A stretch of DNA of 64,000 nt from a virus (Duplodnaviria > Heunggongvirae > Uroviricota > Caudoviricetes): the IMG/VR virus record IMGVR_UViG_2861069343_000001; one strand, written 5' to 3'. The notes beneath the pieces are model-generated. The model did not search any database. It worked only from the letters and a program-made list of their open reading frames with translations, and had not been told where the DNA came from. Both the position numbers and the translations under genes were made by a program. Positions 27,813-57,666 of the stretch are shown in pieces. Numbering within the stretch: position 1 is the first letter of the stretch; each line of letters opens with the position of its first letter.

Positions 27813-27816
27813 AAAA

Positions 27817-29450: not shown

Positions 29451-29540
29451 TTAATTACGTCAGTAGCCAATAGAGATTTTTGTTGTGGAACAAAAATATA
29501 TATTTTACAATCTAGTAACTTTGGGTGGAGGATTATTACA

Positions 29541-31090: not shown

Positions 31091-31120
31091 AAATTAACAC
31101 CCACTTAAGATGTCTAAACC

Positions 31121-31140
31121 AGCCCGGTATTAACCGGGCT
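31121..31140. terminator. hairpin between convergent cassette and lxc
   Basis: AGCCCGGT-ATTA-ACCGGGCT perfect 8-bp stem. Confidence 0.4.
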
Positions 31141-31148
31141 AGACAAAC

Positions 31149-31834: not shown

Positions 31835-31867
31835 ATTATGCGACGCCCGGCGAACCGGGCGCTCCTG

Positions 31868-38635: not shown

Positions 38636-38702
38636 TGGTAATCCTTAACAAGTGACTAGTGTTAAATTTCCGTTCAAACACGATACGAATTATTCTAATT
38701 AA

Positions 38703-41433
<2,731 letters not shown>

Positions 41434-41440
41434 CCACCAA

Positions 41441-41472
41441 AAATAACCCCGGCGAGTGCCGGGGTTCTCGTT
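41441..41472. terminator. bidirectional terminator between pro and lyz
   Basis: AACCCCGGC-GAGT-GCCGGGGTT hairpin plus TTCTCGTT. Confidence 0.55.
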
Positions 41473-41724
41473 AACTATTATCGACTTCGCCTGCGTGCCA
41501 TATATTTGCGCACCGCGCGGCGTGGACAATCTGAAGCGGTTTCTTTCTGCTGCATCAATCTCGCGGCCATGCTCAAAAATGTCAGGCACAGCCGAAGCCC
41601 GGCATACAATAGCGGTTCCAGTGGCCACGTTTCATTAAGCACATATACCGCCATGAAAATCGAGTCGAAAACTATCGCTGCCAGCGATAACTTCATTGTC
41701 GAAAGTCTGCGGAGCTGCCGGAGT

Positions 41725-42282
41725 TTATTCATTGACCAGTCCCGTCAGGCAAAGCTGGCGTTCTTTTTCACGGCGAATCTTTAAACCTCGCAGGGGCACG
41801 CCGTTACTGTTCACAAAATCAGGGAGATGGTTACACATATTCACCCATTCCCCTTTCTGCGCCCACTTGTGGATGGACGTTTCGACTCGCATGCCTCGCG
41901 CTTTGCTGTAGTAGGTCCGTAAGCTATTGCATCCCATATTGAATGCCGCGCTTGTCATTGCACTAAAGGCATTATCGGGCATGTCTTTGCCCCGGAAGTG
42001 CTGATTAATACAGCGTTCAGCGATCAGGATATTCTTTTCCCAATCAGCGGCGATTTGCTGGTCGGTTTTTCGCACACCCGGCGTTACCCCGTGTGTATTA
42101 CCGATCCCGTCAGTCCATACCCCCGCCGGGCACATGTATGGATCACGTCGGCAACCTTCAGCGTTACCAATCAGCTCAAGCCCCGCCTGGTTGGTTCGCA
42201 CATTGCCATTACCCATTACGATGGTAATCATCACCGCGATAGCGCAAATTGCACCGCCTCCTGCGGCTGTTTTTCCCTTCAT
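41725..42282 (-). CDS. lyz: phage lysozyme (T4 lysozyme-like, GH24)
   Basis: 185 aa; LELIGNAEGCRRDPYMCPAGVWTDGIGNTHG. Confidence 0.8.
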   Translation of the reverse strand: MKGKTAAGGGAICAIAVMITIVMGNGNVRTNQAGLELIGNAEGCRRDPYMCPAGVWTDGIGNTHGVTPGVRKTDQQIAADWEKNILIAERCINQHFRGKDMPDNAFSAMTSAAFNMGCNSLRTYYSKARGMRVETSIHKWAQKGEWVNMCNHLPDFVNSNGVPLRGLKIRREKERQLCLTGLVNE

Positions 42283-42414
42283 AAAGACCTCATAAGCGAA
42301 TTTTTACGCTCCAGGACAAACACCCATTCACAGCCAATACCGACTGACTCGATCCCTTTAGAAGGCACAGGATAATGCAAATCACTTGTTAGCTACGTTT
42401 CAAAGATATACATT

Positions 42415-42431
42415 ATTGCTCTAATCATTTT
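42415..42431 (+). promoter_or_regulatory. C1 operator-like site upstream of ssb
   Basis: ATTGCTCTAATCATTTT. Confidence 0.45.
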
Positions 42432-42450
42432 ATTTTATTAGGTAAGATAA

Positions 42451-42939
42451 GTGGCACAACGCGGTGTAAACAAAGTCATCCTGATTGGTACCCTGGGGCA
42501 AGACCCGGAGATCAGGTATATACCAAATGGCGGAGCGGTCGGAAGACTAAGCATCGCAACAAATGAATCATGGCGCGACAAGCAAACGGGCCAACAGAAA
42601 GAGCAAACAGAATGGCATAGAGTCGTTTTGTTCGGGAAACTTGCTGAAATTGCGAGTGAGTATTTACGAAAAGGTTCTCAGGTCTACATCGAAGGGAAAC
42701 TTAAAACCCGTAAGTGGACAGATGACGCCGGTGTAGAACGTTACACGACGGAAATTATCGTCAGCCAGGGCGGCACCATGCAAATGATCGGCGCTCGCCG
42801 TGACGATTCACAGTCCTCAAATGGCTGGGGGCAATCGAACCAACCTCAAAACCACCAGCAATACAGTGGTGGCGGTAAACCTCAGAGCAACGCCAATAAC
42901 GAACCTCCAATGGACTTTGACGACGATATTCCGTTTTAG
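42451..42939 (+). CDS. ssb: single-stranded DNA-binding protein
   Basis: 162 aa; OB-fold [23 protein letters not shown]...; acidic tail DFDDDIPF. Confidence 0.9.
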
Positions 42940-43141
42940 AGTTTATGAGTAAAAAACGACTGAAAGAAAAGCGGTGGTCAAGACGCCGACAAAAGCACGA
43001 ACTCGCAAACAAACGCCAAAGTTGGCAATGGCACGCGCTTTTAACGAATAGAACACCCCGAGATATTGCTTTCGCTGGTGGGAAAACATTCCTAACCAAC
43101 CTGAAGGCGCAATACATCAGTTTTTAAGCAGAGAAAAGACT

Positions 43142-43936
43142 ATGACAGCACAAAATACTAAAACCATTCAATACCGCCTGCGTAATGGCCAGAGTGTAGA
43201 AGTGACCATCAATAATGATGGTGTACCTGGCGAAAAGGTTTCTATCTCTGATCTGGCTATCGAAAAAACCATCATGTGCCACCTTGGCTTTACTGAAGAA
43301 GTGAGCAAAAAGCATGGTGTAGCTATCTGGCGCACAATGGATACTGGCATGCGCAGATTCATTACTGCTCGTACCCCTGGTATGACCATGATGGACCTCA
43401 TACAGATTGCGCCGCTGTTTGAGTGTGAACCTTTGGATGTATTCAGCAATCCAGCTATCTGCCAGCAGTTATATGGTGAGATGAAACTCGCGGTTACCCC
43501 CATTGTGCTGCATGAAGGATCGCTTGCTGGCGTATGGAAAGTAGAGCGAATTTCAAGCTACATGCCATTCCACATCCATGTCAACGGCGTAATCACAGGT
43601 GAAAATCAACCTGTTTCAGTTACAAAGTCAGACCTCAATCGCGCAATTCTTGAAGCAAGTTGTCGAGTTATCGGCCTGGGCAAACAGTCTTATGTTTCCT
43701 TCCCGGCTGGTCCTGAAGGCCCGGCAGAAATTCTGATTATGGATGCTGATCTGCTCTGGCAAATACAGTTTCTGATTGGCAAAAGCATCATCCGCGCTGA
43801 AGAACTCGATCAGTACATTACCTGCACGATGACGGATGAAGTCAAAAGTGTGGCTATAGCCAATGCCCGGAACCTGTGTCGTGCTGCATTAACAGAACTG
43901 CAAGAAAACACTACGGAAGAAGTGGAAAGCGATTAA
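43142..43936 (+). CDS. hypothetical protein
   Basis: 264-aa ORF followed by terminator. Confidence 0.5.
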   Translation: MTAQNTKTIQYRLRNGQSVEVTINNDGVPGEKVSISDLAIEKTIMCHLGFTEEVSKKHGVAIWRTMDTGMRRFITARTPGMTMMDLIQIAPLFECEPLDVFSNPAICQQLYGEMKLAVTPIVLHEGSLAGVWKVERISSYMPFHIHVNGVITGENQPVSVTKSDLNRAILEASCRVIGLGKQSYVSFPAGPEGPAEILIMDADLLWQIQFLIGKSIIRAEELDQYITCTMTDEVKSVAIANARNLCRAALTELQENTTEEVESD

Positions 43937-43967
43937 AAAAAATCCCGCCGATTGGCGGGATTTCTTC
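43934..43967. terminator. bidirectional rho-independent terminator
   Basis: AAATCCCGCC-GATT-GGCGGGATTT plus TCTTC. Confidence 0.55.
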
Positions 43968-44283
43968 AATATACGATCTGGTCTACATGATCCCCAAAAT
44001 CATCGTCGTCATCGTCGTCGTCCTCATCGCCACCCTCTACTGCTGGCCAATCAACAAACCAGCCAGCGTAAAGATGCAGCGTTCGGAGAACATCACTTGC
44101 GGGAGCATCAAGGGTGTTAACGAATCCCATATAGCTATTGGGATTTGCCCCAGCTATGGCTTCAGCGATCATGTCCTCGGTAATGTCACCGGAGATAATG
44201 CTTAAACGCCCGGAAACTTCTTCATTATCATCAAATTCGATAATGGCATCTCCGCCTAATGGCGCCGCGATTTTAATCTGCAT
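43966..44283 (-). CDS. small acidic protein, last gene of leftward operon
   Basis: 105 aa, poly-Asp C-terminus. Confidence 0.4.
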   Translation of the reverse strand: MQIKIAAPLGGDAIIEFDDNEEVSGRLSIISGDITEDMIAEAIAGANPNSYMGFVNTLDAPASDVLRTLHLYAGWFVDWPAVEGGDEDDDDDDDDFGDHVDQIVY

Positions 44284-47260
44284 TATTTAGCTCCTTTGCC
44301 ACACCTAATAACAGTTCCAGCAATCCGTCACCATTCATCAGTGATGCGGCAGCGGCCTCTTTGTCATGATACAACTGAAGAGCCATAGAGAATACTTCCG
44401 TTGCTGACGTTTTGGAAATAGTCGGTGATTTCTGCCGAATTTTCCCGGAGTTACTCACTGAGACTGGCGGGTATACCTTCGCCATATAAATATTACTCAA
44501 TCGAGATCTGAAGCACCATTCAGGCTTGCCACGCCCACCGATATTGACGAAAGATAGCTTACCCCCTTCAACATTGGCCTTCAGGAATGACCGGGCTTTC
44601 TCTAACAAACCGGGGTTACTGTACTCAAGATGATGACCCAGCTCGTGCCACAGTGCTCTTGCATTTTCATCGTTCAAATTGACAGCAACAACACCATTTA
44701 GATTTGCATATGCCCTTCCCTGGTGGTGAACCACCTTTGATAAGGTCGATATTTTCCCGCCAGTCAGGCGATAAATATCAGCAAGTTCCTTGCGCAGGTT
44801 TATCCCACCATTCTGTCCAGCGCGGGCTTCTTCCACTTCTTCCGTGATAAAAGAGTCGGCCCACTCAAGAGCTTTTTCTTCAGATACGGATGAGTTGGCG
44901 ATCGCACTGTTCATGGCAGATAACACTTTCTCGTGGACCGAACCCATACTTCGCTGATTCATTTGCCAGCGTGTCTGCGGGTTATATGAGAATCGCTTAA
45001 GTAGTTGGTCAAGATGCTCAAGTTCTTCTTCGCTGACATACTTTTTAGCCTCACCAATAATGCCAGGGAGAATATTGCCGTTAGGATTAAACGCTCGCGA
45101 AAGGAAGAGTTTCAGCGCCCCCATGCCCTCCGATGCTTCAATATCACCAATAACCTGGTTAACAATGGCCGCACTCTTCGGATTAGCATCCGCCAACGCT
45201 CTGGCTACGATTTGCAGGGACGATACGACCTCACGCTGCATATCAGTCCTGATCTCATCAATAAACTCTGGCGTTATGCCGTGCTCTTTAAGGATATCCC
45301 TGCCTTCCGCCGTTACCCCATCGATATCACCGACATGTTTATTAACCCGACTTTGCAATGCCTTAAATGCCTTCAGAATTCCACGGGCATCATCCGCTTT
45401 ACTAACGGCCTTCCTGAATGCTGGCAAGAAGTCAGAGTTAACCTCATTTTGTTGATCGGCCCACTGAATGGATGCTTCTTTCATCTCGTCAAGAGTCAGA
45501 TCACCCAACGCGGTATGATCTGTGAATATGAGCGACAGCCTCTGAACCATTTCTGCCAATGGTGATGCCGTATGCGCCGCGCTAAGGAATGCTTTCACCC
45601 TGGTTGGGCGAATGGAAAACCAGTCAATAGCTGGTGGCATATCTCCGTTTTTTATCGCCTGCGCTATCTCATCAAAGCCATCGCGCCCAAGGGAGGATGC
45701 GTGATTTAACAAGCCGCGAAGTAACGAATTGCTGATACCGAATAATCGGCACCATTTTTTCACGTCGGCAACAGGCATTCGAACAAAATGCGCAAGCACT
45801 TGTACAAGCTGTTCATCCTGGGGATCTGTGCGGGAAAGCAGCCTGATCAGATGAATAATGTCTTTGATGCCGGATGCCCGATGTAATAGCAAACTGGTAT
45901 ACGGAGCAACACCGTTGTAGCTACCGCCGGAAACGGACTCGAAAAGACCGCCGGATATCCCTTGCATGCCTTCGTTTTCCAGTTCCTGAGACACCTGGCG
46001 AAGGATATCCTGTAACGACACATCGCCGCCGCCAAACATATCCCCGAGCGCCTGGCCCTGGTGCTGTAACTCATCATTGATACGTTGCGCCATCAACTTA
46101 AAGGCGGTGGCCATACGCTTCGCGCTACGGTTATTCGCGACGATAAACAACGCGAGTGCTTTCACTTCCGGGGCCGTTTCGCTGAACATATCCCCCTGAG
46201 CAATAACATCGGTAATATGCTGGCCTGACTCCTTCGATTGCCTTACCAGGTCTACCGCATCTTTCAATGCCGCCAGCGCCTTTTTATCGAGGCTATCCGC
46301 TGTCTCAATGCCATCAACAATAGTTGTCACAGCCTGCTTGTGCGCTTCTCCTGACAAAGCCTGCATCTGGACAAAATCATTGGCTGCCGCATTAAGCGCC
46401 GTCAGAACATTACGCATATCCGGATCAGGTTCTTCTGCAACCATCCTTACCAGGCGCGCATCCTTATATGCCTTGGCAAAGATCGCGTTTTGTATACGGT
46501 CTACAAGTTGCCGTGTTGGTCGCCCATCTTCCGTTACAAGGCCAGCAGCCTGTGTGGCACCAACTTGCGTCATGAATCCGCGAATAAACGCGTCATTACT
46601 GCGGCTAAGCAGATCTCCACTTTCTGATGGGTTAAACAGCGCCATCATCGCCGGAGTTATGCTGTCAGCATCAACAAAAGCCTTTTCACTGGCTGCCATT
46701 TCCTGAAGATCAGAAATATTTGAGTCCTTGGCAAACTGAACGCGGTCAACCTTAGTTAACCGTCGGCGCACCAGTACCGGAGCCGCCATTGATTCAACCT
46801 TTTCAGGTCGTATGCCGAATTCGGTCGCATGATCAATCAGGTACTCACGATACCGATCCGCATTGCCGTCCTGATAGGCTTTGATGATCCCCATGGTCCG
46901 TCCATTACCTGACTCAACGGCATTGTCCTCACCAATTATCGGCGCGCCATGGCTGGATAAACCGGAATCGGTAAGCTGGGCAGGACGCAAATCCTTGGAT
47001 ATCTGGTTGACCTGAAGAAGATTGGATGCGCGGGTCCGGTCGCGCGGCTGAAGTTCCTGGGGATAGTCAGGGTTAATTTTCCCGTCCAGAGTATTGGATA
47101 CCAAAAGAGCTGAGGCATCGACGATATCAAACGCTGTTTTTACCTCGTCTCCCTTCGCTGTCACCACATACGAAACCCGCCCGTAATTGGGCAGGTTTTT
47201 TAGCAGCTCGATCAGCGTTTCTATGCTGGTGGCCATTACCACCTGATCGCTTAAGCTCAT
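44273..47260 (-). CDS. large protein with HExxH metallopeptidase-like motif; possibly Dar-operon DdrB-like
   Basis: 995 aa; WHELGHHLE motif; size and position consistent with P1 ddrB from memory. Confidence 0.45.
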   Translation of the reverse strand: MSLSDQVVMATSIETLIELLKNLPNYGRVSYVVTAKGDEVKTAFDIVDASALLVSNTLDGKINPDYPQELQPRDRTRASNLLQVNQISKDLRPAQLTDSGLSSHGAPIIGEDNAVESGNGRTMGIIKAYQDGNADRYREYLIDHATEFGIRPEKVESMAAPVLVRRRLTKVDRVQFAKDSNISDLQEMAASEKAFVDADSITPAMMALFNPSESGDLLSRSNDAFIRGFMTQVGATQAAGLVTEDGRPTRQLVDRIQNAIFAKAYKDARLVRMVAEEPDPDMRNVLTALNAAANDFVQMQALSGEAHKQAVTTIVDGIETADSLDKKALAALKDAVDLVRQSKESGQHITDVIAQGDMFSETAPEVKALALFIVANNRSAKRMATAFKLMAQRINDELQHQGQALGDMFGGGDVSLQDILRQVSQELENEGMQGISGGLFESVSGGSYNGVAPYTSLLLHRASGIKDIIHLIRLLSRTDPQDEQLVQVLAHFVRMPVADVKKWCRLFGISNSLLRGLLNHASSLGRDGFDEIAQAIKNGDMPPAIDWFSIRPTRVKAFLSAAHTASPLAEMVQRLSLIFTDHTALGDLTLDEMKEASIQWADQQNEVNSDFLPAFRKAVSKADDARGILKAFKALQSRVNKHVGDIDGVTAEGRDILKEHGITPEFIDEIRTDMQREVVSSLQIVARALADANPKSAAIVNQVIGDIEASEGMGALKLFLSRAFNPNGNILPGIIGEAKKYVSEEELEHLDQLLKRFSYNPQTRWQMNQRSMGSVHEKVLSAMNSAIANSSVSEEKALEWADSFITEEVEEARAGQNGGINLRKELADIYRLTGGKISTLSKVVHHQGRAYANLNGVVAVNLNDENARALWHELGHHLEYSNPGLLEKARSFLKANVEGGKLSFVNIGGRGKPEWCFRSRLSNIYMAKVYPPVSVSNSGKIRQKSPTISKTSATEVFSMALQLYHDKEAAAASLMNGDGLLELLLGVAKELNNAD

Positions 47261-47272
47261 CCCTGTTACGCC

Positions 47273-47635
47273 TTATGCTGCCTCTTTAATGTTGGCGGCT
47301 ATCCATGCCGCCGTGTGCTGTTTAACCTGGTCCAGATCGATGTATGTGCCAACATATTGACTCAAGTCCTGCAACGTACCGATAAATGCATCGGTGCTCT
47401 GATCGACGAATTTATCAGCCAGGAAATCAGCAACCAGTTTTGGCACACCATCATGTACCGAAGGTTGTTTTTCCTCGCCACTACCGCCGCCGGACGCGCC
47501 GTACCCCATCTGTTGCATGATCTGGTCAATTTCATCGCTGATATCCAGCAACTCCATGCCACTCGCGGTAGCAGCTTTGGACATCAGAGAATCCAACTTG
47601 TCGCTGAGGTCCATTAACTCAATAGCTGATAGTGT
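47273..47635 (-). CDS. small protein, possibly DdrA-like
   Basis: about 121 aa from internal Met MTLSAIELMDL of ORF 47273..47821. Confidence 0.35.
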   Translation of the reverse strand, partial: TLSAIELMDLSDKLDSLMSKAATASGMELLDISDEIDQIMQQMGYGASGGGSGEEKQPSVHDGVPKLVADFLADKFVDQSTDAFIGTLQDLSQYVGTYIDLDQVKQHTAAWIAANIKEAA

Positions 47636-47642
47636 CATGCCG

Positions 47643-49889
47643 CTAGCTATTGTTGTACGCCTCATACATCTGCAATCCAGTAGCAGCACCTTGTGTTGTA
47701 TCGGTGAGCGCAGTAACACGCCCTCTGGACGTAATTGTTGGTATCGAAATGTTCGCAGAACCATCAAACTTAACACCGTTGATTGTGCGGGCTGTTTGCA
47801 GTTTCGTAGCGGTTGCAGCATTGCCGGTAGTGCTCTGATTACCTGCTTTATTCACGCCCGGCAGGTCGATATTGGCACTACCATCGAACGACACTCCGCC
47901 GATTGTGCGTGCTGTTTGCAGTTTTGTGGCGGTGGATGCATTACCTGTCAAAGATCCACTAAGAGCCACGGCACTAAGAGACTTAACACTTACATCCTGA
48001 CCCCATCCGGAAACAACAACCTGACTCCACGCTGCCCAGCTTCCATTAACAACAAAGCGAACGTATATACGTTTTGTGTCGTTGCTGATCAGCGTTTGCA
48101 TGTTCGCATAATCCGAAGCAGAAACTTTGCGAGTCGACTCTACACGGAGCAAAAAGTTACCGTTTACGCCGTCAGGCTTGTTGGTGATATTTGCACCACC
48201 TCCAAAGGTTGGACAATAATAATATTTAATTGCCCCGACATCTGAGCTGATGGTCAGGTTGTTAAGATCAACCGTCTGGTCGCCAATTTTTTCCGGCTCG
48301 ATGGCTCCTGCTATCCCGGCACTAAATGTAGCAGCGGCTGAAAACGCTGTCTTACCTTTGAAAGTCTGTTGAGAACTCCAGGTATTAGCTGTGCTCAACA
48401 GGGGGATCTTTTCGCCGCTGGTTCCGATTTCTCTTAAACCAAGGTATTGGATAACAGCCAGTGTGCTTGTTTTAGCCAGGATATCGCGACCGACTGACGT
48501 TAAATCAGTCTGGGAAACAGTGTCTGTACCGGTAAAGTACGGCAATTTATTTGCGCCTGTCGCAAGACCAGCAAGCGCGGTTAAAGTTGCATCCAGAGGC
48601 TGTTTGCCTGCCAGCGCATTTGTCATTGTTGTCGCAAAGTTCGGGTCATTGCCCAGTGCTGCTGCAAGCTCATTCAGGGTATCAAGAGCTTCAGGTGATG
48701 AGCCGACCAATGCAGAGATAGCAGCTCTTACATAAGCGGTCGTAGCAATCTGCGTGTTATTCGTACCCTGTGCAGCGGTAGGCGCAGTAGGTATTCCCGT
48801 TAATGCAGGACTTGCTAAAGGAGCTTTAAGAGCCAGAGCATTGTTGATAGTTGTGCTGAAATTCGGGTCGTTATTGATCGCAGCAGCTATTTCTTTAAGC
48901 GTATCCAGTGTGCCAGGTGCACCGTTGATAAGTGCCGTTATAGCTGCCTTAACAAAGGCTGTATTTGCGATCTGCGTGCTGTTTGTACCTTGCGCTGCCG
49001 TCGGCGCGGTTGGCGTTCCTGTCAGACTCGGGCTTTCTATTGGCGCTTTGGTATCAGCCAGCTCTTTTACAGACTTAACGGCTTTAGGGGTAGCCGCCAT
49101 TGTTTCGCTGTCGCTGTTAGTTGCGCTACTGAGCTGAACTAATCCCTTTTGTGTTGTGCTTGCATCCTGCGCCGTATACTTGCTTTTAGCCAGATCGTAG
49201 GCTTTTTTAACCGCCAGCGAACTTGCAGCGACATCACTTCTGGTACTGGTTACAGAGTCGGAAATTTCAATGCCTATCGCGAGATCGATGCGGTCGGATA
49301 CATCTATCATTTCCTTAGTAATAGCAGATACGCCAGCAGGGATATTCACCGTACAAACAAGCAGTTCCCCATCTCCTAACTGATATGAATCGGTATAGGT
49401 TCTGGCAACAAATTCAGCCGCATGAATATGTGACGCGGTATTAACCTGATAAGAATCTTCTCCAAGGAGGTATCTTCCCTTCAGCACAATTGCATATTTC
49501 TTACCTGCGCTAAGTGCAAGAGAAATATCCTTACGCTGCTGAATAGTTACCTGGTAGAATTCACCAATATTCACTGACGCCGCGCCAGCGGTTTTATCAC
49601 CATCCACTGAGGTGATTAACAGGTTCATCCCACCGCCAGGCTTAGGAAAAAAACCGGCATAAAATCCAGGGTCAACAATTCCCCTGAATTTTCGGTTTAG
49701 CGCGGCTGACAGATATGGTTCGTGGTATTGCACATCAGCCACCAGAGCCAACGACTCGGGTGATGGGTAAGTAACCGATGTGACAACTGTAACGTCATTC
49801 ATCAAGCATATCCTTATGCTGTAGTCGTGTTTATGGCCATAACTGCGGTATATGTTTTGCCCACATACAGCGAGTCTTCCTGGACACAA
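47643..49889 (-). CDS. tail fibre protein (S-like) with internal repeats
   Basis: PTAPTAAQGTN[ST]TQIA repeats; C-terminal NAATATKLQTARTINGVKFDGSANI motif; start likely internal. Confidence 0.7.
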   Translation of the reverse strand: MCPGRLAVCGQNIYRSYGHKHDYSIRICLMNDVTVVTSVTYPSPESLALVADVQYHEPYLSAALNRKFRGIVDPGFYAGFFPKPGGGMNLLITSVDGDKTAGAASVNIGEFYQVTIQQRKDISLALSAGKKYAIVLKGRYLLGEDSYQVNTASHIHAAEFVARTYTDSYQLGDGELLVCTVNIPAGVSAITKEMIDVSDRIDLAIGIEISDSVTSTRSDVAASSLAVKKAYDLAKSKYTAQDASTTQKGLVQLSSATNSDSETMAATPKAVKSVKELADTKAPIESPSLTGTPTAPTAAQGTNSTQIANTAFVKAAITALINGAPGTLDTLKEIAAAINNDPNFSTTINNALALKAPLASPALTGIPTAPTAAQGTNNTQIATTAYVRAAISALVGSSPEALDTLNELAAALGNDPNFATTMTNALAGKQPLDATLTALAGLATGANKLPYFTGTDTVSQTDLTSVGRDILAKTSTLAVIQYLGLREIGTSGEKIPLLSTANTWSSQQTFKGKTAFSAAATFSAGIAGAIEPEKIGDQTVDLNNLTISSDVGAIKYYYCPTFGGGANITNKPDGVNGNFLLRVESTRKVSASDYANMQTLISNDTKRIYVRFVVNGSWAAWSQVVVSGWGQDVSVKSLSAVALSGSLTGNASTATKLQTARTIGGVSFDGSANIDLPGVNKAGNQSTTGNAATATKLQTARTINGVKFDGSANISIPTITSRGRVTALTDTTQGAATGLQMYEAYNNS

Positions 49890-50248
49890 ATAATGGCGAT
49901 TGGCTTGTTCTCGTTATCCAGAACAACCAGAGTGTTGAATGGGTAGTTTTTCCCTTTCTGCAACTGGCTTTGATCAAGGTCCATTCGGACAGTAATTATC
50001 CCGCCTGAGTAGGTTGGGACGAGGTTGATGGTGCAAAATTTACTGGTCAGTTCTGCCAGATCGAAAGCCTTTGGCAGTTCTCCAATCTCATAAGTGCCAT
50101 CTCCTTTCTTAGTAACCAGTGAACTGGTACCGAAAACGGCCTTGCTGATTAAAAATCGAGAGCCTTTGTTAATGGACGATTCAGCGCGCCGCTGATAGTA
50201 ATAGTCCAACAACTGACTCTTATAGAGGTTTGTTGAGACGTCAGACAT
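49814..50248 (-). CDS. tail-fibre-associated structural protein (P1 R position)
   Basis: 144-aa ORF upstream of tail fibre gene. Confidence 0.45.
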   Translation of the reverse strand: MSDVSTNLYKSQLLDYYYQRRAESSINKGSRFLISKAVFGTSSLVTKKGDGTYEIGELPKAFDLAELTSKFCTINLVPTYSGGIITVRMDLDQSQLQKGKNYPFNTLVVLDNENKPIAIICVQEDSLYVGKTYTAVMAINTTTA

Positions 50249-50299
50249 GATTTTCCCTAATCAATGTTGTGAAGCCTCATTGTAAGAGAAGTAACTTGT

Positions 50300-50322
50300 C
50301 ACCCCGCCCTGCGGACGGGGTG
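50300..50322. terminator. hairpin after leftward gene stop
   Basis: CACCCCG-CCCTGCGGA-CGGGGTG; weak T-tract. Confidence 0.3.
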
Positions 50323-50326
50323 ATTG

Positions 50327-51166
50327 TCAGGCGTCGCTATCCAGCAACAAATCATCTGCGCGTGTGCGATCAAACGTAGGTGTCGCTTTCACAATAGTGC
50401 CACCAGGCGTTGCGGTGATCGGGGCGCTAATCGACGTAACTCCAGTAAGCGAAGTTGTATCCGAAGTTTCAAACCAGCAGTACGCTTTTTCGGTATCAGA
50501 AATCTCGTTCAAAGTGATCATGTCGGCCTGTTCATTCACAACAACCGACAAATAGAGCGTAAGCCCATCAAACACTATATGCAGTGGCAGTAGAGGCTTT
50601 ACGAACTGATTAAACTTTCTGAGAATTTCTTCTGTAATTGCGGACTGATCTATCGTGCCAGTAATACCCATTGTCCGGGCCAGGTCGTTTATGGGAATAC
50701 TGATCATCCCTCTGGAAGTCAGAAACATCTCGCCGAATGTGCCGCCGGTAGTTTCCAGTGTGCTTTCTGGTATTAGAACTGTGCCATAGGGATGACGTTC
50801 AAGGTCCACCGGTGCATATATCGGATCCCATAAAACAGAAATACCATTAAATTCGCGGTAAATTGTCTGGTTTATAGGGCGTTCAGTCCCCTTAAAGTGA
50901 ATCTCATCAAGCCGCTGTTGTAACAACATCGGAACGGAAGATGAGTTTGAGGTTCTGATAGTAAAGAACTGGCCAAGTTCATTTGTCCTGGTCTCCAGAT
51001 CCTCCTTGCTCATGGAAAAAATAGACTTCCGGTTGGTAATTCGCTCCAACCATGGGTCAACAAAGGTGTCCATCATTGACTGAACCAAATCAGCCAATGA
51101 TTTATAGAGCAATGACTTTTGCTTAGCTGATGTAAGCCGATTATTAAACCAGGAACGTTGCATCAC
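50327..51166 (-). CDS. baseplate/tail structural protein
   Basis: 279-aa ORF coupled to upstream gene. Confidence 0.45.
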   Translation of the reverse strand: MMQRSWFNNRLTSAKQKSLLYKSLADLVQSMMDTFVDPWLERITNRKSIFSMSKEDLETRTNELGQFFTIRTSNSSSVPMLLQQRLDEIHFKGTERPINQTIYREFNGISVLWDPIYAPVDLERHPYGTVLIPESTLETTGGTFGEMFLTSRGMISIPINDLARTMGITGTIDQSAITEEILRKFNQFVKPLLPLHIVFDGLTLYLSVVVNEQADMITLNEISDTEKAYCWFETSDTTSLTGVTSISAPITATPGGTIVKATPTFDRTRADDLLLDSDA

Positions 51167-52596
51167 TCCTCCTCATACGAAATATTAAAGGTGGAGTTTT
51201 CTGTATCCAGATAAACGAAATCGTAAAAGCCGTTGGACTCATTCCACTCGACAAATTCCAGATAAAAGTCGCGGAAATAACCCAGCGTTTCGATAAATGC
51301 CCAAACGTCTTTTTTCTTGATCAGGATGTACTTGCCGACACCGTTCGGATCAAAGAAATTTGAGTCGCGCCCAAATTTTGTTTCCAGTGCCGACTTCAAC
51401 TCATCAGTCACGTTCTCAATAGTCAGGCTTGCCGATATCCGCCCGGTGATGGTTATCTTAAATGGTAGTTTTCTGACCTCTTTATAAGAGAATTTCTTGT
51501 TCAGTTCATTCGGTACCTTCTTAAAGGCAGTCAGGATCATTTCTTCAAGCTCTGACTGGCTTTTATTTGGATGCCATCCTGAAATAAATATCTTATTGAT
51601 ATTCTGAACATTATAAGCACCATCTAATTTCTCTTGCTGGCCTTCGCCCCATGCCTTTACCCAGGACAGCCCCGGGATGTTACGAACCAGAAAATACGTA
51701 TAGTCCCCGCCCCATACGACCTGATCATCATAGGCAAGGTAATATTGTGCACGGTTACGTGTGATCTCCGTTGTTTCAGCATCGGTACCTGCGGTTATAG
51801 GTGTCGTTGTCTTAACTGAAATCAAATTAGCTAAATTAGCCGCAGAATCGACAGGCGTCAGGTTTTGGCCAGCAACCAGGGTTATATCGCCGTTGGTGCA
51901 CCATACCTTAAGCGTAATTGTCGAACCTTCTGGCGGTATTTGCCCAATTAGCCCATCGCCGAATCGAACCCCCAACTGCTCGGATGGTTTATAAAACTCA
52001 ACGTAGACCTGGCTTTTACTACCGGCTAACCGGAACATAGTGCTGGAAGACCACTGCGTGGTCTTACCATCGGTCGTCACGAATACTTCCAGCTTATAGC
52101 AGACAGCAGTAAGAGCCTTTGATAACACGACTTCCAGAAATTCTTTGGCTGCCGTAACGGTATATGTCACCTCCTGGATTTCCAACTGTGCCACTTCTAC
52201 CGTACCGGTGCCGTCAACCAACCTGCATACATCCATAGTCATGTAAGGGTACTGGTCGTCAGATATTAAAGGCATGTTTTTGGGGATTACCGCTGGGGCA
52301 TCTTCACTTGTGGCGGTGATCTCAATCATCCCCGATGACGGTGTTGGCTTGGTACCAACGTAACTATTCGTTTCTGCCGCTGCCAGGATAGAGGAACGCC
52401 GCGTCGCGGTCGATATAAAGCCTTCAGCCAGCGCCGCATCGGCATACTGAAAGCACCTGTAGACAATCTGGGTAATAAACAATGTCAGCATCGAGACAAA
52501 TTGAGAGCCGACAAACTTCGACCAGAATGAATCTTTCTCGACAAGCTCTTCAAACTCTGCACGAATACTGTCTTTAGTCGGTGTTGTTTTACTCAT
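51163..52596 (-). CDS. baseplate protein (P1 bplA position)
   Basis: 477-aa ORF. Confidence 0.5.
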   Translation of the reverse strand: MSKTTPTKDSIRAEFEELVEKDSFWSKFVGSQFVSMLTLFITQIVYRCFQYADAALAEGFISTATRRSSILAAAETNSYVGTKPTPSSGMIEITATSEDAPAVIPKNMPLISDDQYPYMTMDVCRLVDGTGTVEVAQLEIQEVTYTVTAAKEFLEVVLSKALTAVCYKLEVFVTTDGKTTQWSSSTMFRLAGSKSQVYVEFYKPSEQLGVRFGDGLIGQIPPEGSTITLKVWCTNGDITLVAGQNLTPVDSAANLANLISVKTTTPITAGTDAETTEITRNRAQYYLAYDDQVVWGGDYTYFLVRNIPGLSWVKAWGEGQQEKLDGAYNVQNINKIFISGWHPNKSQSELEEMILTAFKKVPNELNKKFSYKEVRKLPFKITITGRISASLTIENVTDELKSALETKFGRDSNFFDPNGVGKYILIKKKDVWAFIETLGYFRDFYLEFVEWNESNGFYDFVYLDTENSTFNISYEEE

Positions 52597-52952
52597 AGCA
52601 CCACGTCCTGTGTGATAGTTATATCCCTGATACGAATGGATATTTTCAACTTATCAAAAGCATCTCCCTCGGCTACTGACAAGCCAGAAATCGGTATGTC
52701 AGGTAAATCTACCGTCAGTTTTTGCAACAGCATTGCCTCAACCGCAATTTGAACATGCGACAAGTTGGTCGGTTCGTGTTTAAACTGCGGTAAAACATTG
52801 CCCCATGACGGATCTCCGTATACCTCACCCTGATAAGTGTTTAGCCACTCATATAAACGAGCGCCCCAGGCCTCCTCCTGGGACTCATACGTTTTTACGC
52901 CGGATAACTCCAGCGTCAGCAAAGGATCAATTTCGTTATTGTTGGCCATCAA
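52593..52952 (-). CDS. baseplate-associated small protein
   Basis: 119-aa ORF coupled between sit and the baseplate gene. Confidence 0.4.
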   Translation of the reverse strand: MMANNNEIDPLLTLELSGVKTYESQEEAWGARLYEWLNTYQGEVYGDPSWGNVLPQFKHEPTNLSHVQIAVEAMLLQKLTVDLPDIPISGLSVAEGDAFDKLKISIRIRDITITQDVVL

Positions 52953-55900
52953 TCAACTCTCGCGTAGTCATTCATCAACGGATCATCAATTGACAGTGGT
53001 ACCGTGCGCATAACGCCCGGCTGAGGCGTGCTGACCTTTACGACAGTTCCCTGGCCTTTCGCCGAGTCTTTGGTGTGCTCTTCAATCCTGGCAAGCAATG
53101 AGGTCATCTGCGCAAACAGCCGCTTCGTTTCACCATCAAGTGAAACGGTATTATCAGCCAACTGCATTGTCGGCTTGGCACCGGAACCGCCAAGGTCACT
53201 AATAACCTGCCCGTCTATCTGCATACGACCGGTTGGTTGCTGCAAATCGTTGGCGGCAGTCGTCACCTTGGACGTGGAGGCTGGTTCAGTCGCATTATTT
53301 TTCCGCATCCCCGGCGAGTTGCGGAGTTTATCGAATAGTCCATCAATCCCCATTTGTGCGCCGAGTTGGTCAAAGTAACTTGAGTTGCTGGCCACCGGAC
53401 GCACCTCTTCAACTGGCATCGGAGTATCAACATACACATTGCCAGCTGCTGTTGCGGTCCCCTTCCCTCGTGCACGTTCTTCGAGCGTTCCCTGAACGAC
53501 TTCCCGACGCATACCCCGGCCATTCATGAATTTGTTGACCAGATCGTTAACGCCAACAGCATTGCCGATTTTGTCTACCAGACCGCCTTTCTCAAACGGG
53601 CTATCACCAGGGGTAAACGCCAGGCCAGTAGACTGATCGATAACAGCGTTATCAGGCAGTGGTCCCCTCACTCCATATTGCGCCCCACCCTGTGCTCCTG
53701 CTCCAGGTGTATAGATTTCACCACCTAAATAGCGAGCACGATGAGTATTGACCTTGATCGCGTACTCACGGTTTTCTTTCGATAAGTCACCTGTGCCTTT
53801 TTTCCACTTATTGATAGTGCCAAACCCAGCGTTATATGCAGTGATGGCCTCGTTTAAGTCTCCATTGGCTTGCTTCAGATACTTGCTCATGAGAAGAGCC
53901 GCAGCTTCTGCCGATTTCACAGGATCAAACGATTCACCTTCAGCTAAGCCAGTCTCTTCACGAGCAATCCCCGTGAACTGAAACATTCCCAGAGCACCGG
54001 TTTGGGATTTTGCATACGGATTACCACCAGATTCAGTTGCAGCAATCGCGTAAAGAGTACCTTCAGGAAGGCCATATTTATTCTCTAGTTCAGCAAAATA
54101 CGGAGCCAACTTATCGAGATTTGCCTTACCTTCAGCGCCAAGACTTCCGACTTTTACATACAAGTTGCCATTATTGTAGGTATCCGCAGCTTTCTGAATG
54201 TCATTCCTGGTGCCAGTGGTATTAAGCGAGGATGATGACGAGCTATTTTGACCAATAGCTTTATCAATTTTCTGCAACGCGCTATTGCCCGTTTCTACGG
54301 CATTTGCATTGATAATCTGATTGGCAGTTTGTTTAACTGTTTTATTGCTATCTTTCGCTGTGTCCAGTGCCGCATTTATCACGCGGGTAGCAATATTAGT
54401 CTGTTTGGCATCGGATTCAGTTTTAGAATCAGATGTCTCCTGGTGGCTATTAACCGGAGCTTTTAACTCTGGAGCGATTTCTTTCGCATTAGCCTCGCTA
54501 TTAACCGGAGCTTTTAACTCTGGAGTGATTTCTTTCGCATTAGCCTCGCCGATCGGATTGGGTATTTTTGATACAATCATTGCCGCAGGGGTATTTTTAA
54601 CGGCATCAACCGCTGCATCTAATGCTTTACCAGGTAAATTTTTAACCCCATCCCAAATATTACCAGCCGCCTCTTTAATGTGTTTCCCTGGGTTCTTAAT
54701 GAAATCAATTGCACTATCAATTGCATCACTGAAAACCTGTTTCAGGTTATCAACAGTAAAGAAGTCTTTGATGGCATCCAGCTTTTCAAGCAGCTTATTA
54801 GATGTATCGCTAAACCATGCTGAAACAGCATCACCAATCTTTGCTGTGTAATCTTCGAACTTGGTAGAAATGGTGTCGCCAAGGTTAGAAATATATGTTT
54901 CTAAGTTGGTAATCCCACTATCAATGGCCTGGGCAATACTTTCCGTCGAAAATGATTGCAACATATTGCCGATATCCTCAAATCCAAGTGATTTGAGAAC
55001 CTCACCAATGGCGCTGCTAATACCAGATACCAGTCCCCCCATATCAAGAACATTGGCTAACGTATAAGCGGCTTTTTGCTGGAATGATGGATCTTGTCCT
55101 GATTTAAGCCCAAACGCTCGACGTTGCGCTTCTGTATCATTCCAACCGGTTACCGCATCATAAATACCTCCAGCCACTGTGCCGACTAAGGGAATTGCGC
55201 GTAACGCCCCTTTACCAACTGCCTTTAATCCAAGTTTACCTGCTGCCCGGGCAGCCAAATCTCCACCTTCATGGGCGATAGTCTTCTTGCCACCACCGCG
55301 TAGCATTCCTACAAGTTTCTTTGCCCCCAGAGCGCCAAAAGCGAGTGCTCCAGCTTTTTTCAGCATGCCACGCCCCATTAACAACGACGCGACGCCACCG
55401 GCCCCCTTCCCTAACAGGCTAAATAGTTTGGACAGCAAGCCGCCCTTCTTTTTCCCGGTGTTTTTGGCTATCTGATCAAGGGCGCTGAGAATCTTGTCAT
55501 TGCCCTCTTTAATTTCGCTGGTCTGCTCCTGAAGTTCCTGAACTGTCCGTTTTTGGGTGTTAACCTGAACGACATCGGCACTATTTTGCGATTTACGCCT
55601 AAAAAAACCTTTTCTACGGCTGTTATCGTCATTGCCACGAATCACATCGGCAATAGACTTTCTGGCACCATTAAGCGATCCACCAACTTCTTTTGATATC
55701 CCGCCAAGCTCCTTCCCTGCTGCCCACAATGGACCAGCAACGGCATAACCTAACGCATCAACGGCACGAGTCTCTGAAGGGTTACCTATGCCTTCAGCTA
55801 CTTTTGACAGTTTTTTTAATAAACCTGATTCAGCATTTAGACGCTCATCATCCTCTTTGCGCCTGGCCTTTTCAGCACGTTCAGCACGGGCATCTTCCGT

Positions 55901-56689
55901 TGCGGCCTTACTCCCTAACTTTCCAATAAAACGACCACGCGCATCGCGTTGGTTTTGGCTTTTTTGCGCACCGCCTTTTTGATCGAACATTTCGCGAGCG
56001 TGTTCGGCTGCTTCGGTCCGTTGTGCCTTTATATCCTCTGGTATAGCCTTCCTGCGTCGTTTTTTACCCTTTGGTGTAGTTGATTTGGCCTGCTGTTCCT
56101 GTTGAGCAATGCCCTCCTGAACTACACGAGAAACGTCCCCTAAATTAAGCCGTTTCATTGCGTCAACAATAGGGTCTACTGATGGCACATTGGCCACAAA
56201 GTCTGGCCGGGAATTTTCGATTGTTCGATTTAATGCCGACACACTGCGAGATACTGGGTCAACCGTTGCAACGCGTTCCCCTTTCAAATCACGAGCGAGT
56301 TTGACCGTTTCTAACCGCTGTGCTTTAACATCCTCTGTTATTGCCTCTCTTCGTCTATTTGGGGGATTGTGCGCTGTTGGTGCAGCCTGCTGTTCACGGT
56401 TAGTGACTTTGTCCTCCCGTATACGAGAAACGTCCCCTAAATTAAGCCGTTTTATTGCGTCAACAATAGGGTCCACTGATGGCGCATTGGTCACAAAGTC
56501 AGGACGTGAATTTTCGATTGTGCGATTTAATGCCGACACACTGCGAGATACTGGGTCAACAGTTGCAACTCGTTCCCCTTTCAAATCTTCAACAGCTTCC
56601 CGAATACCTGCAAGCTCTTCCAGCTCTTTCGCGCTGGCGGTTTCAACTGTCCTTATAATATCGTCAATATTGGCGTTTTTTCTTTCCAT
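52949..56689 (-). CDS. sit: Sit-like injection transglycosylase / tape-measure protein
   Basis: 1246 aa; Gly/Ala/Lys-rich central region; lytic transglycosylase motif LYAIAATESGGNPYAKSQTGALGMFQF. Confidence 0.8.
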   Translation of the reverse strand: MERKNANIDDIIRTVETASAKELEELAGIREAVEDLKGERVATVDPVSRSVSALNRTIENSRPDFVTNAPSVDPIVDAIKRLNLGDVSRIREDKVTNREQQAAPTAHNPPNRRREAITEDVKAQRLETVKLARDLKGERVATVDPVSRSVSALNRTIENSRPDFVANVPSVDPIVDAMKRLNLGDVSRVVQEGIAQQEQQAKSTTPKGKKRRRKAIPEDIKAQRTEAAEHAREMFDQKGGAQKSQNQRDARGRFIGKLGSKAATEDARAERAEKARRKEDDERLNAESGLLKKLSKVAEGIGNPSETRAVDALGYAVAGPLWAAGKELGGISKEVGGSLNGARKSIADVIRGNDDNSRRKGFFRRKSQNSADVVQVNTQKRTVQELQEQTSEIKEGNDKILSALDQIAKNTGKKKGGLLSKLFSLLGKGAGGVASLLMGRGMLKKAGALAFGALGAKKLVGMLRGGGKKTIAHEGGDLAARAAGKLGLKAVGKGALRAIPLVGTVAGGIYDAVTGWNDTEAQRRAFGLKSGQDPSFQQKAAYTLANVLDMGGLVSGISSAIGEVLKSLGFEDIGNMLQSFSTESIAQAIDSGITNLETYISNLGDTISTKFEDYTAKIGDAVSAWFSDTSNKLLEKLDAIKDFFTVDNLKQVFSDAIDSAIDFIKNPGKHIKEAAGNIWDGVKNLPGKALDAAVDAVKNTPAAMIVSKIPNPIGEANAKEITPELKAPVNSEANAKEIAPELKAPVNSHQETSDSKTESDAKQTNIATRVINAALDTAKDSNKTVKQTANQIINANAVETGNSALQKIDKAIGQNSSSSSSLNTTGTRNDIQKAADTYNNGNLYVKVGSLGAEGKANLDKLAPYFAELENKYGLPEGTLYAIAATESGGNPYAKSQTGALGMFQFTGIAREETGLAEGESFDPVKSAEAAALLMSKYLKQANGDLNEAITAYNAGFGTINKWKKGTGDLSKENREYAIKVNTHRARYLGGEIYTPGAGAQGGAQYGVRGPLPDNAVIDQSTGLAFTPGDSPFEKGGLVDKIGNAVGVNDLVNKFMNGRGMRREVVQGTLEERARGKGTATAAGNVYVDTPMPVEEVRPVASNSSYFDQLGAQMGIDGLFDKLRNSPGMRKNNATEPASTSKVTTAANDLQQPTGRMQIDGQVISDLGGSGAKPTMQLADNTVSLDGETKRLFAQMTSLLARIEEHTKDSAKGQGTVVKVSTPQPGVMRTVPLSIDDPLMNDYARVD
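54449..54550. repeat. 51-bp tandem direct repeat x2 inside sit
   Basis: ATTAACCGGAGCTTTTAACTCTGGAG[C/T]GATTTCTTTCGCATTAGCCTCGC repeated. Confidence 0.8.
56120..56590. repeat. imperfect direct repeat of about 170 bp, two copies 297 bp apart, inside sit
   Basis: ACGAGAAACGTCCCCTAAATTAAGCCGTTT...CCCTTTCAAATC at 56126 and 56423; protein repeat KGERVATVDPVSRSVSALNRTIENSRPDFV. Confidence 0.75.
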
Positions 56690-56770
56690 GATCTTATCGC
56701 CTACCGTTTCGGTTTAAGTTTTTCTTCCAGTTTCTCCAACAGGAAAAACGCATAGGATTCAGTAAGCCTT

Positions 56771-57652: not shown

Positions 57653-57666
57653 CCTTGCTCCTTAAT

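Follow-up and report, generated by a model that had tools for sequence, protein, structure and literature searches.

A single 6,990-bp deletion very probably turned a P1-like IncY phage-plasmid of Escherichia coli into a non-spreading, plasmid-maintained element

In phage P1, the genes from the tail fibre to the end of the dar operon follow the order S-U-U'/Sv'-cin-lydC-lydA-lydB-hdf-darA-ddrA-ddrB-hxr, whereas in the 64,000-nt stretch of P1-like DNA analysed here (the window; IMG/VR record IMGVR_UViG_2861069343_000001) a tail-fibre ORF is followed directly by a 121-aa ddrA-like ORF and a 995-aa ddrB-like ORF; hence the question whether the intervening genes were lost from this element or had never stood there. 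An earlier note, made from the letters alone, had remarked on this order, set it against the P1 map and offered two readings, namely a deletion derivative or a P1 relative with a different fibre and lysis organisation. The P1 map given there agrees with the annotation of AF234172, and the three ORFs are present, with their P1 homology confirmed. The fibre ORF of 748 aa given in the note does exist as a longer form called from a TTG start (47643..49889, minus strand), but in biological terms the ATG at 49802, with which residue 1 of P1 gpS aligns, is the likely start, leaving a protein of 719 aa (S').

The comparison that answers the question is with pCARB35_01 (NZ_CP031654.1; IncY, 89,643 bp), which is 100.000% identical to the window over positions 17211-47645 and over positions 47644-64000; between these two parts the plasmid has a further 6,990 bases (parent positions 27121-34110). 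When the parental sequence up to 27120 is joined to that from 34111 onwards, the reconstruction occurs exactly in the window, and S' corresponds exactly to residues 1-719 of the 1,566-aa parental S. Since the missing genes form a discrete gap relative to a plasmid identical on both flanks, their absence is not due to chance. On the coding strand of the junction, TA and the following G generate the TAG stop codon of S', at the place where the parent has a TAC codon (Tyr720). From the ddrA side, homology to P1 and to the parent stops at window position 47645, equivalent to P1 position 27914 and 7 nt upstream of the ddrA ATG, and the native GGGGG Shine-Dalgarno sequence of ddrA is lost at the junction. 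Codon 719 of S was joined to this point via a 2-nt TA microhomology. A single illegitimate-recombination deletion of 6,990 bp in a P1-like (Punavirus) IncY E. coli phage-plasmid, resulting in a non-spreading element maintained as a plasmid, is thus the highly probable explanation, and the first reading of the note is borne out. The assignment to Punavirus follows from synteny and from shared parts that are 97-98% identical to P1, P7 and SJ46, with P1 proteins matching at 93-100%, and the IncY typing (PLSDB) is that of the parent.

According to the RefSeq annotation and to tblastn with P1 proteins, the deleted block comprises the last 847 codons of the fibre gene, the fibre-assembly gene, a cin remnant, lydC-lydA-lydB, hdf and darA, and the late promoter LPdar is removed with it (lydC/lydA/lydB and LPdar lie at 30491-31609 in the parent). 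In Pfam terms, Gp34_trimer, Gly_rich_2 and Caudo_TAP are confined to the deleted part, the first two belonging to the 847 distal residues missing from S', while S' keeps its constant N-terminal region as well as the Phage_fiber_2 repeats. Residues 1-483 of P1 S align with it at 95%. The parental 1,566-aa fibre was split into pseudogene pieces in an older RefSeq annotation and is an intact CDS in the newer one. The features of the window are collected in Table 1.

Table 1. Positions in the window of the features around the S'-ddrA join and of the other elements discussed
Feature	Position	Strand	Remarks
LPs, late promoter of the R-S operon	50279..50297	-	gap-free alignment to P1 L001 21319-21337; -10 box 50279-50284 and -22 box 50289-50297, both identical to the P1 boxes
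Gene R (baseplate wedge / fibre attachment), intact	49814..50248	-	144 aa; 97.9% to P1 gpR
S', truncated tail-fibre gene	47643..49802	-	719 codons + TAG; exact prefix of the parental 1,566-aa S
cixR, orphan relic of Cin inversion inside S'	48432..48451	.	20-mer 100% identical to P1 cixR
Deletion junction	47644..47645	.	TA dinucleotide common to both parental ends
darA 3' remnant	47639..47643	-	7 nt if TA is counted; nothing else of darA left
ddrA, intact	47273..47638	-	121 aa; 96.7% identical to P1 DdrA
ddrB, intact	44273..47260	-	995 aa; ddrB-ParB domain (Pfam); 97.9% to P1 DdrB
hxr, final gene of the former dar operon	43966..44283	-	94% to P1 Hxr
lyz, SAR endolysin, intact ORF	41725-42282	-	100% to the P1 protein
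lydD, pinholin, intact ORF	41478-41732	-	98.8% to P1 LydD
lydE, intact ORF	41413-41628	-	93% to the P1 protein
darB	31868-38635		2,255-aa ORF
IS2	15882-17211		sole IS in the window, 30 kb off the junction

Upstream of the join, LPs differs from its P1 counterpart by a lone mismatch located between the -10 and -22 boxes. After the deletion it is the sole recognisable promoter 5' of ddrA-ddrB-hxr, and a scan of the LPs-to-ddrA interval for minus-strand terminator-like sites found none. Stripped of their own promoter and Shine-Dalgarno sequence, ddrA, ddrB and hxr would now constitute a 3' extension of the R-S' late transcript. The ddrA ATG begins 4 nt past the S' stop, and ddrA would be translated at best by re-initiation after this stop.

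The absences listed in the note, namely cin, U, hdf, darA, the inverted fibre copy and the assembly gene, were found to be real. In tblastn over the whole window at E<=10, P1 DarA, Hdf, LydA, LydB, LydC, Cin, U and U' gave noise only, as did the fibre-assembly protein of the parent. Relocation of these genes was also considered and rejected: P1 has them between S and ddrA, tblastn of the window, the parent and a complete sibling plasmid (pYS2456-2, below) placed them at the parental position only, and they are absent from the whole of that sibling. Only one cix site, the cixR inside S', is present; no second site occurs in the window at <=5 mismatches, so the paired inverted sites of a Din-family switch are lacking, as is a serine invertase gene. 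In the parent, cin is reduced to codons 1-49 with an internal stop, and the parent lineage also lacks an invertible segment, encoding instead a single long, fixed fibre together with an assembly gene of the lambda type (Caudo_TAP). The losses of cin, the C-segment and U predate the deletion and are a trait of the whole undeleted lineage; the second reading of the note is correct to this extent, as the undeleted parent lineage was already unlike P1. A two-piece match of the AR437 plasmid over 2.3 kb suggested that part of the fibre gene is inverted or shuffled in the parent lineage, an idea that was rejected; the annotated arrangement is that of pCARB35_01, and the two-piece match therefore arises from internal fibre repeats.

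Two systems survive in part. In the case of lysis, Lyz, LydD and LydE are encoded in the window, and the main holin LydA, the antiholin LydB, the accessory holin LydC and LPdar are missing; the intact lydD contradicts the statement in the note that no holin-like small transmembrane protein is present. In the case of the Dar anti-restriction system, DdrA, DdrB and DarB are retained, and DarA and Hdf have no match in the window or in the complete pYS2456-2. A PADLOC scan of a YaaC-like pair and an acyltransferase gave no matches.

The identical S'-ddrA junction is found in two complete long-read plasmids from Switzerland, pYS2456-2 of strain N2456 (NZ_CP189489.1) and the plasmid of N2512 (NZ_CP189425.1), both of 76.2 kb. 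Compared with the window, both lack IS2 and carry a second deletion of 6,439 bp, which extends from the gene that separates DUF5384 and tub, across tub and sit, into the N-terminus of bplA. In pYS2456-2, RefSeq labels S' as 'tail fiber protein, incomplete, missing C-terminus' and records a frameshift in lyz from a 1-nt deletion; over its complete length, this plasmid contains no darA, hdf, lydA/B/C or cin. Furthermore, 45 blocks of a public assembly collection contain exactly this 719-aa S'; among the contigs with it, one measures 82,775 bp and many measure 76,244 bp. Subtraction of the deletion from the parent leaves 82,653 bp (89,643-6,990), and removal of the second 6,439 bp leaves 76,214 bp, exactly the length of the N2512 plasmid. 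Among sister plasmids, recurrent deletion endpoints are observed, one of which is the ddrA-proximal end used here. Translational coupling as the basis of this recurrent end was rejected, as the variants follow no common pattern; in pGN4554-1, lydB' reads in frame with ddrA, and in the window S' ends 4 nt before it. Searches of the literature on pCARB35_01, pYS2456, CP189489 and others found nothing relevant and yielded no usable statement tying the lineage to a host clone, and no sequence type is claimed.

Of the other accounts, the one that survives best accepts the same deletion event and ascribes its persistence to adaptation, i.e. a selected taming in which the losses of fibre, holin and Dar functions, and later of tail genes, were favoured in the host clone. 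Eight deletions in at least four independent variants of the lineage all fall within a single 22-kb late-gene block (parent 16-38 kb), three deletion endpoints recur, at parent 16997, 34105-34110 and 38254-38259, and the S' lineage has been sequenced many times, with most of the S'-carrying contigs read showing the second deletion and the loss of tail genes. However, no other contiguous set of genes that a lysogen can do without is as large as this block, so that clustering is partly expected; on a rough estimate the block accounts for about 60% of the late-gene DNA, and seven independent deletions would then all fall inside it with P about 0.03. Moreover, the loss of fibre, tail and Dar functions does not stop lethal induction, and the recurrent endpoints together with TA microhomology suggest hot spots of mutation and not selection. 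Selected taming is accordingly rather unlikely. It is likewise only tentatively suggested, at a similarly low probability, that the deletions as a group, in which six of seven short microhomologies at the junctions include TA, are non-random, arising either from a sequence-directed process (Chi-like or G5TA-limited end joining, or a TA-specific nuclease) or from repeated taming in a successful clinical E. coli clone.

As for the mechanism of the deletion, a Cin/Pin-type invertase acting at cixR and a quasi-cix site, or an adjacent deletion mediated by an IS, would be alternatives to illegitimate recombination. The intact cixR in S' and a 2-nt junction such as a serine recombinase would leave are consistent with the former; the IS2 in the window is consistent with the latter, as are the darA- deletion mutants of P1, which are said to be classically IS1-mediated (Iida and colleagues, in 1987). 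Against the invertase, cixR and the breakpoint within S are 787 bp apart, dyad symmetry resembling that of cix is seen at neither breakpoint, and the parental cin is a dead 49-codon stub. Against an IS, none is present at or near the junction, the lineage lacks the IS1 found next to isaA in P1, and the distant IS2 is absent from the relatives compared. Both routes were rejected, as very unlikely.

A native organisation, in which the genes were never at this place, the fibre is naturally short and the 6,990 bp are an insertion in pCARB35_01, is extremely improbable. P1-like plasmids are known to be hypervariable in the lydC-cin-Sv'-U'-U-S block (PMC9603915), and phage phi456 is viable without cin, both of which would fit such a view. 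Nevertheless, ddrA continues into darA in P1, P7, phi456 and the other P1-like records listed, and Dar-Ddr has been reported in every P1/D6 element screened (survey, bioRxiv 10.1101/2025.09.12.675607), a universality of the complete system that the present element contradicts. In addition, 7 nt of the darA 3' end persist, the stop codon of the fibre gene is made by the junction, the Shine-Dalgarno sequence of ddrA is missing, and the lineage-specific DdrB allele occurs in 1,279 blocks of the assembly collection against 45 for the truncated S'. An assembly artefact, by repeat collapse or a chimeric join, has a negligible probability in spite of the internal repeats of about 200 bp in the fibre gene, since the breakpoints share 2 nt only and lie outside these repeats, the same junction recurs in independent complete long-read genomes as well as in dozens of assemblies built from short reads of different runs, and contig and plasmid lengths agree with the deletion arithmetic.

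The functional effects of the illegitimate-recombination deletion can be predicted from P1. Host specificity is set by S, and incorporation of the Dar proteins requires DarA and Hdf (PMC9024508). The fibre would lack its distal trimerisation and receptor-binding part and its chaperone, and with these lost, particles would be fibre-less or non-adsorbing, making spread as a phage impossible. Without DarA and Hdf, on which loading of the remaining components into the head depends, the Dar system would be dead, and DarB, DdrA and DdrB would be left as its orphans. Lysis would be crippled but not abolished, because Lyz and LydD remain: LydA is the main holin of P1, LydD is a demonstrated pinholin, and a lydA lydC double mutant still forms plaques without lysing liquid culture (PMC9025707). 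The genes for replication, partition, addiction and immunity should be intact in the remainder, which is identical to the parent, and would allow vertical persistence as a plasmid; repA/parA/parB-type genes lie outside the window and are present in the parent and in pYS2456-2. The window's own replicon is absent from PLSDB, INPHARED and the complete E. coli genomes of RefSeq, and the roughly 20 kb beyond the window are deduced from these relatives, both of which lack the IS2 of the window. With S cut to 719 of 1,566 aa, the Caudo_TAP gene lost and the remainder equal to the parent, the element is, to judge from its gene content, most likely a non-infectious phage-plasmid maintained as a plasmid, a case of ordinary, known prophage decay.

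The element is a clean, fully resolved case of a phage-plasmid taking its first step towards a plain plasmid. Through one microhomology deletion of 7 kb it would have lost host recognition, the main holin with the antiholin, and the scaffold of anti-restriction, while the stably inherited replicon stays in place. Sequenced descendants display the next steps: tail genes have gone, lyz has acquired a lesion and an IS has inserted. Typing of P1-like elements by marker genes would still return a phage-plasmid, although infection is probably lost, and such miscalls matter when P1-like elements are counted as vehicles of gene spread.

Compared with known systems, the closest is pCARB35_01 with its near-identical copies (AR437, WCHEC020032, SUISSEKPC3NDM5 and others), in which the gene order is that of the window, with the 6,990 bp kept and no IS2. 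P1 (AF234172) shares R, Sc, ddrA, ddrB, hxr, lyz, lydD and lydE at 95-98% identity (lydE 93%, lyz 100% and hxr 94%), and has in addition Sv/U/U'/Sv', cin, lydC, lydA, lydB, hdf and darA between Sc and ddrA, as well as IS1 and isaB adjoining hxr. The P1-like phi456 (OR339795.1), deposited as a phage propagated on E. coli MC1061, has no cin or invertible segment and a single fixed S, which is complete (818 aa); two small ORFs and an entire lydA-lydB-hdf-darA block come after it. As phi456 is functional without cin, the absence of cin alone is no defect. Classical darA-operon deletion mutants of P1, reportedly described by Iida and colleagues in 1987 and 1998, are said to lack darA, hdf and lydA/B, with antirestriction, head-size and lysis-timing phenotypes, and to be viable phages because S and U are intact, whereas here the deletion truncates the fibre as well. 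The conversion of P1-like phage-plasmids into plain plasmids through gene loss is documented (PMC10879196), and those plasmids went through the same process, losing tail and lysis genes and keeping plasmid functions. They are more advanced, often with an acquired oriT or relaxase and resistance genes, whereas the present element, in which no conjugation functions were seen, represents an early stage, a single deletion away from an apparently complete phage-plasmid.

On its alignments the window belongs to the P1-like (Punavirus) elements; P1, P7, SJ46, RCS47 and others align to 40000–52000 at 96–98% identity, and within this region all these alignments end or start at 47645/47646. A gap-free map against P1 (AF234172) resolves three matching blocks, listed below with the genes around the fibre. 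P1 27915–36393, containing darA, hdf, lydB, lydA, lydC, cin, cixL, Sv', U', U, and most of Sv, is without a counterpart on this map, and window 47646–48354 is fibre sequence dissimilar to P1. The P1 gene order given in the earlier note agrees with AF234172. Its 748-aa fibre ORF does reach a TTG at 49889 in the ORF listing, but the ATG aligned to residue 1 of P1 gpS lies further inside, defining the shortened fibre gene S'. In P1, IS1 and isaB are situated beside hxr, whereas the window lacks both; the gap between the isaA-like gene and hxr (43937–43967) is just 31 nt.

Coordinates of the P1-matching blocks, the fibre-region and lysis genes, and the deletions in sister plasmids
Feature	Sequence	Coordinates	Strand	Remarks
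P1 darB end-prt-pro-lydE-lydD-lyz-ssb-isaA	window	38399-43936		gap-free map vs P1
P1 hxr-ddrB-ddrA + 7 nt of darA	window	43968-47645		gap-free map vs P1
P1 from 77 bp inside C-segment, cixR, Sc, R, gp16, bplA, pmgA, sit	window	48355-53961		gap-free map vs P1
R	window	49814-50248	minus	ORF listing and P1 protein comparison
S'	window	47643-49802	minus	start at ATG aligned to P1 gpS residue 1
ddrA	window	47273-47638	minus	
ddrB	window	44273-47260	minus	
hxr	window	43966-44283	minus	
lydE	window	41413-41628		intact; 93% identity to P1
lydD	window	41478-41732		intact; 98.8% identity to P1
lyz	window	41725-42282		intact; 100% identity to P1
Deletions in pGN4554-1 (Jamaica)	parent	16998-19558, 31461-34105		
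Deletions in pEC21Z083-80K (China, four isolates)	parent	16998-22302, 32041-35106, 36604-38254		
Deletion in p23GD35035_P2 (China)	parent	~36962-38246		

By exact sequence correspondence, the missing block is the result of one deletion. In PLSDB and INPHARED, no record spans the junction of S' with the ddrA-proximal end of darA (47644/47645), and each half of this region is matched separately at 100% identity. The undeleted relative pCARB35_01 (NZ_CP031654.1; IncY, 89,643 bp, from a dog in the UK), here termed the parent, corresponds to window 17211–47645 at 64543–34109 and to window 47644–64000 at 27120–10764, both at 100.000% identity. Joining the parental sequence up to 27120 with that from 34111 onward reproduces the window exactly; hence, the window lacks parent 27121–34110 (6,990 bp), which supports the earlier proposal of a deletion derivative. 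Read as transcribed, the S side of the parent runs AAC AAT AGC TA/C CCG ACC and the darA side AGCGGGGG/TAGCGGCATG, with TA as the sole sequence common to both ends, and the window reads AAC AAT AGC TAG CGGC ATG. The join creates the TAG stop of S' from a parental TAC codon (Tyr720), places the ddrA ATG 4 nt past this stop, and removes the G-rich Shine-Dalgarno of ddrA, formerly located in the 3' end of darA. The junction also yields spurious 5'-extended ddrA ORFs (182 aa from ATG 47821; 130 aa in collection gene calls); the extension (47639–47821) is fibre DNA in another frame, and the NCBI call is the native 121 aa.

The parental full-length fibre gene, S, is an unbroken ORF of 1,566 codons, annotated in newer RefSeq as an intact 'phage tail fiber protein', and S' is exactly its first 719 residues. 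By Pfam, S' retains the Phage_fiber_2 repeats, and the deleted part carries Gp34_trimer (residues 1009–1086) and Gly_rich_2 (residues 1375–1563). Downstream of S, the parent encodes a 136-aa Caudo_TAP tail-fibre assembly protein, followed by a cin remnant in P1 orientation (49 codons with an internal stop, parent 30195–30363), and by lydC, lydA, lydB, hdf, and darA at 90–99% identity to P1. Judged from these sequences, the lack of a working cin, an invertible segment, or P1-type U/U' is a trait of the whole pCARB35_01-type lineage, and every other absence is an effect of the 6,990-bp deletion, so that two layers, the later one being the deletion, account for the finding. The alternative offered earlier, a P1 relative with a different fibre organisation, is supported too with respect to cin and the C-segment, whose loss is older. 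Having a fixed fibre region without cin is no defect in itself; phi456, which was deposited as a phage propagated on MC1061, likewise possesses such a region. Hypervariability of the lydC-cin-Sv'-U'-U-S block among P1-like plasmids is already recognised (PMC9603915).

Searches (tblastn) of all 64 kb with P1 DarA, Hdf, LydA, LydB, LydC, Cin, U, and U', and with the fibre-assembly protein of the parent, give no match at E<1e-3 and noise only to E=10, confirming the reported absence of a serine invertase, U, hdf, darA, and a tail-fibre assembly gene. In the parent, each missing gene has one match, at the deleted position. Neither the parental counterpart of the replicon portion beyond the window (parent 80419–89643 plus 1–10763) nor the complete sibling plasmid pYS2456-2 (zero tblastn matches) contains them, contrary to the possibility that they lie elsewhere in the replicon. 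The observation in the earlier note is real, save its claim of no holin-like protein, since lydE, lydD, and lyz are intact and LydD is a pinholin demonstrated by experiment (PMC9025707). This overlooked lyz-lydD-lydE cluster (41413–42282) is flanked by pro and ssb. A single perfect P1 cixR 20-mer (48432–48451) survives inside S', but cin is missing from the window, and so is a partner: no second cix site occurs there at up to 5 mismatches.

A search of 5,426 complete E. coli genomes gives two plasmids that span the junction at 100%, both from human isolates in Switzerland: pYS2456-2 (NZ_CP189489.1; strain N2456, 76,204 bp), the fibre of which is labelled 'incomplete; missing C-terminus' in RefSeq, and the plasmid of strain N2512 (NZ_CP189425.1; 76,214 bp). 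Of the blocks indexed in the public assembly collection, 45 hold the exact 719-aa S' and 1,279 the lineage-specific DdrB allele, which makes the deleted form a minority sublineage, at roughly 3–4%. S' occurs on an 82,775-bp contig with intact tail genes (GCA_929618255.1) and on many 76,244-bp contigs. Taking 6,990 from 89,643 leaves 82,653, and a second deletion (6,439 bp) brings this to 76,214, which matches the N2512 plasmid in length; in the 76-kb form, this second deletion extends from the gene beside tub, through sit, into the bplA N-terminus, with TAC microhomology. The window carries the 6,990-bp deletion, intact tail genes, and an IS2-like IS3-family element (15882–17211, ~1.33 kb; ORFs HTH_Tnp_1 and rve), which is flanked by a 5-bp GTTTC duplication and splits an AT3-SGNH acyltransferase gene, cutting ORF 14247–15884 to 545 aa. 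Both the parent and pYS2456-2 lack this element, so that within the set of relatives compared only the window's replicon has the insertion. The window sit (tape-measure/transglycosylase) holds a tandem duplication (55992–56587) of two neighbouring ~300-bp copies with ~80% identity.

An adaptive 'taming' instead of neutral decay is possible but unsupported. Mediation of the deletion by Cin/cix is opposed by the 787 bp separating the breakpoint from cixR, the absence of cix-like symmetry at the breakpoint, and the dead cin, and mediation by an IS is opposed by the lack of any IS at the junction. A short form as the ancestral state is contradicted by the S' stop codon made by the junction, the remaining 7-nt darA stub, the lost ddrA Shine-Dalgarno, the fact that the remaining P1-like records listed have darA adjoining ddrA, and the short arrangement being in the minority. 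An assembly artefact is excluded by the independent occurrences of the junction and the absence of repeats at the deletion ends.

Deletion from the parental form recurs in sister plasmids, in independent events within one near-identical lineage. All eight deletions in four variants, including two of the window lineage, are located in parent 16–38 kb, a clustering partly expected because this is the largest run of lysogen-dispensable genes. Three endpoints are recurrent (parent 16997; 34105–34110, the ddrA-proximal end in the window; 38254–38259), with 0.06 coincident endpoint pairs expected and P(≥3) ~3e-5 as a post-hoc estimate. The microhomologies across the lineage are TA-rich (TA, TAC, GTTAC, GGGTA), TA being present in six of seven short ones vs 6.8% in simulated junctions; GGGGGTA lies just before two endpoints and CAGGTTA just before two others. 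The pattern is statistically non-random in this post-hoc test, and the repeated use of endpoints points to mutational hot spots. These non-random deletions are the sole feature possibly worth more work.

In phage fibres, the C-terminal domains and a Tfa/U-type chaperone are required for trimer folding and receptor binding. The S' end is homologous to approximately residue 548 of 987 in P1 S, and virions should be fibre-less or non-adsorbing because S' has lost its distal domains and no assembly chaperone is left. According to PMC9024508, P1 S makes up the fibre and determines host specificity, and DarA and Hdf are head-size determinants required for incorporating the Dar system; the leftover DarB, DdrA, and DdrB would not be loaded. 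A large survey reports Dar-Ddr in every P1/D6 element (bioRxiv 10.1101/2025.09.12.675607), making this element an exception. The main holin is LydA; a mutant in both lydA and lydC still forms plaques but fails to lyse liquid cultures, LydD and Lyz being enough on plates (PMC9025707). The Lyz+LydD(+LydE) set is precisely what the window retains, and lysis would thus be impaired, not abolished, still proceeding via Lyz and LydD. Meanwhile, the deletion removes LPdar, both promoter boxes of LPs upstream of R are kept, and no minus-strand terminator-like site exists between LPs and ddrA; hence, R-S'-ddrA-ddrB-hxr probably forms a single late transcript, in which ddrA translation would hinge on re-initiation 4 nt past the S' stop.

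In addition, at the P1 res/mod place between mat and darB/ulx (29541–31090), the window encodes two proteins, one YaaC-like (346 aa, Pfam E=6e-46) and one of 169 aa weakly matching nucleoside 2-deoxyribosyltransferase. PADLOC gives no match for either, and together they may form a defence or accessory pair that has yet to be described.

The remainder is identical to the parent and is expected to include its replication, partition, addiction, and immunity genes, by which the element would persist through inheritance as a plasmid. In pYS2456-2, lyz has a 1-nt deletion (plasmid ~26130, codons ~30–34), called a frameshift by RefSeq and possibly a homopolymer sequencing error. On the ERR4783641 contig, lyz is missing 12 nt in frame (~14065) at the same codons, placing lesions at one spot in two sublineages of the S'-ddrA deletion; other copies are intact. 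The descendants show the continued decay that would be expected. The element is best described as a defective P1-like phage-plasmid, already known in that RefSeq relatives carry a pseudogene flag, and as a fresh example of a well-known type of event, following the same route from phage-plasmid to plasmid as described by Pfeifer & Rocha (PMC10879196).
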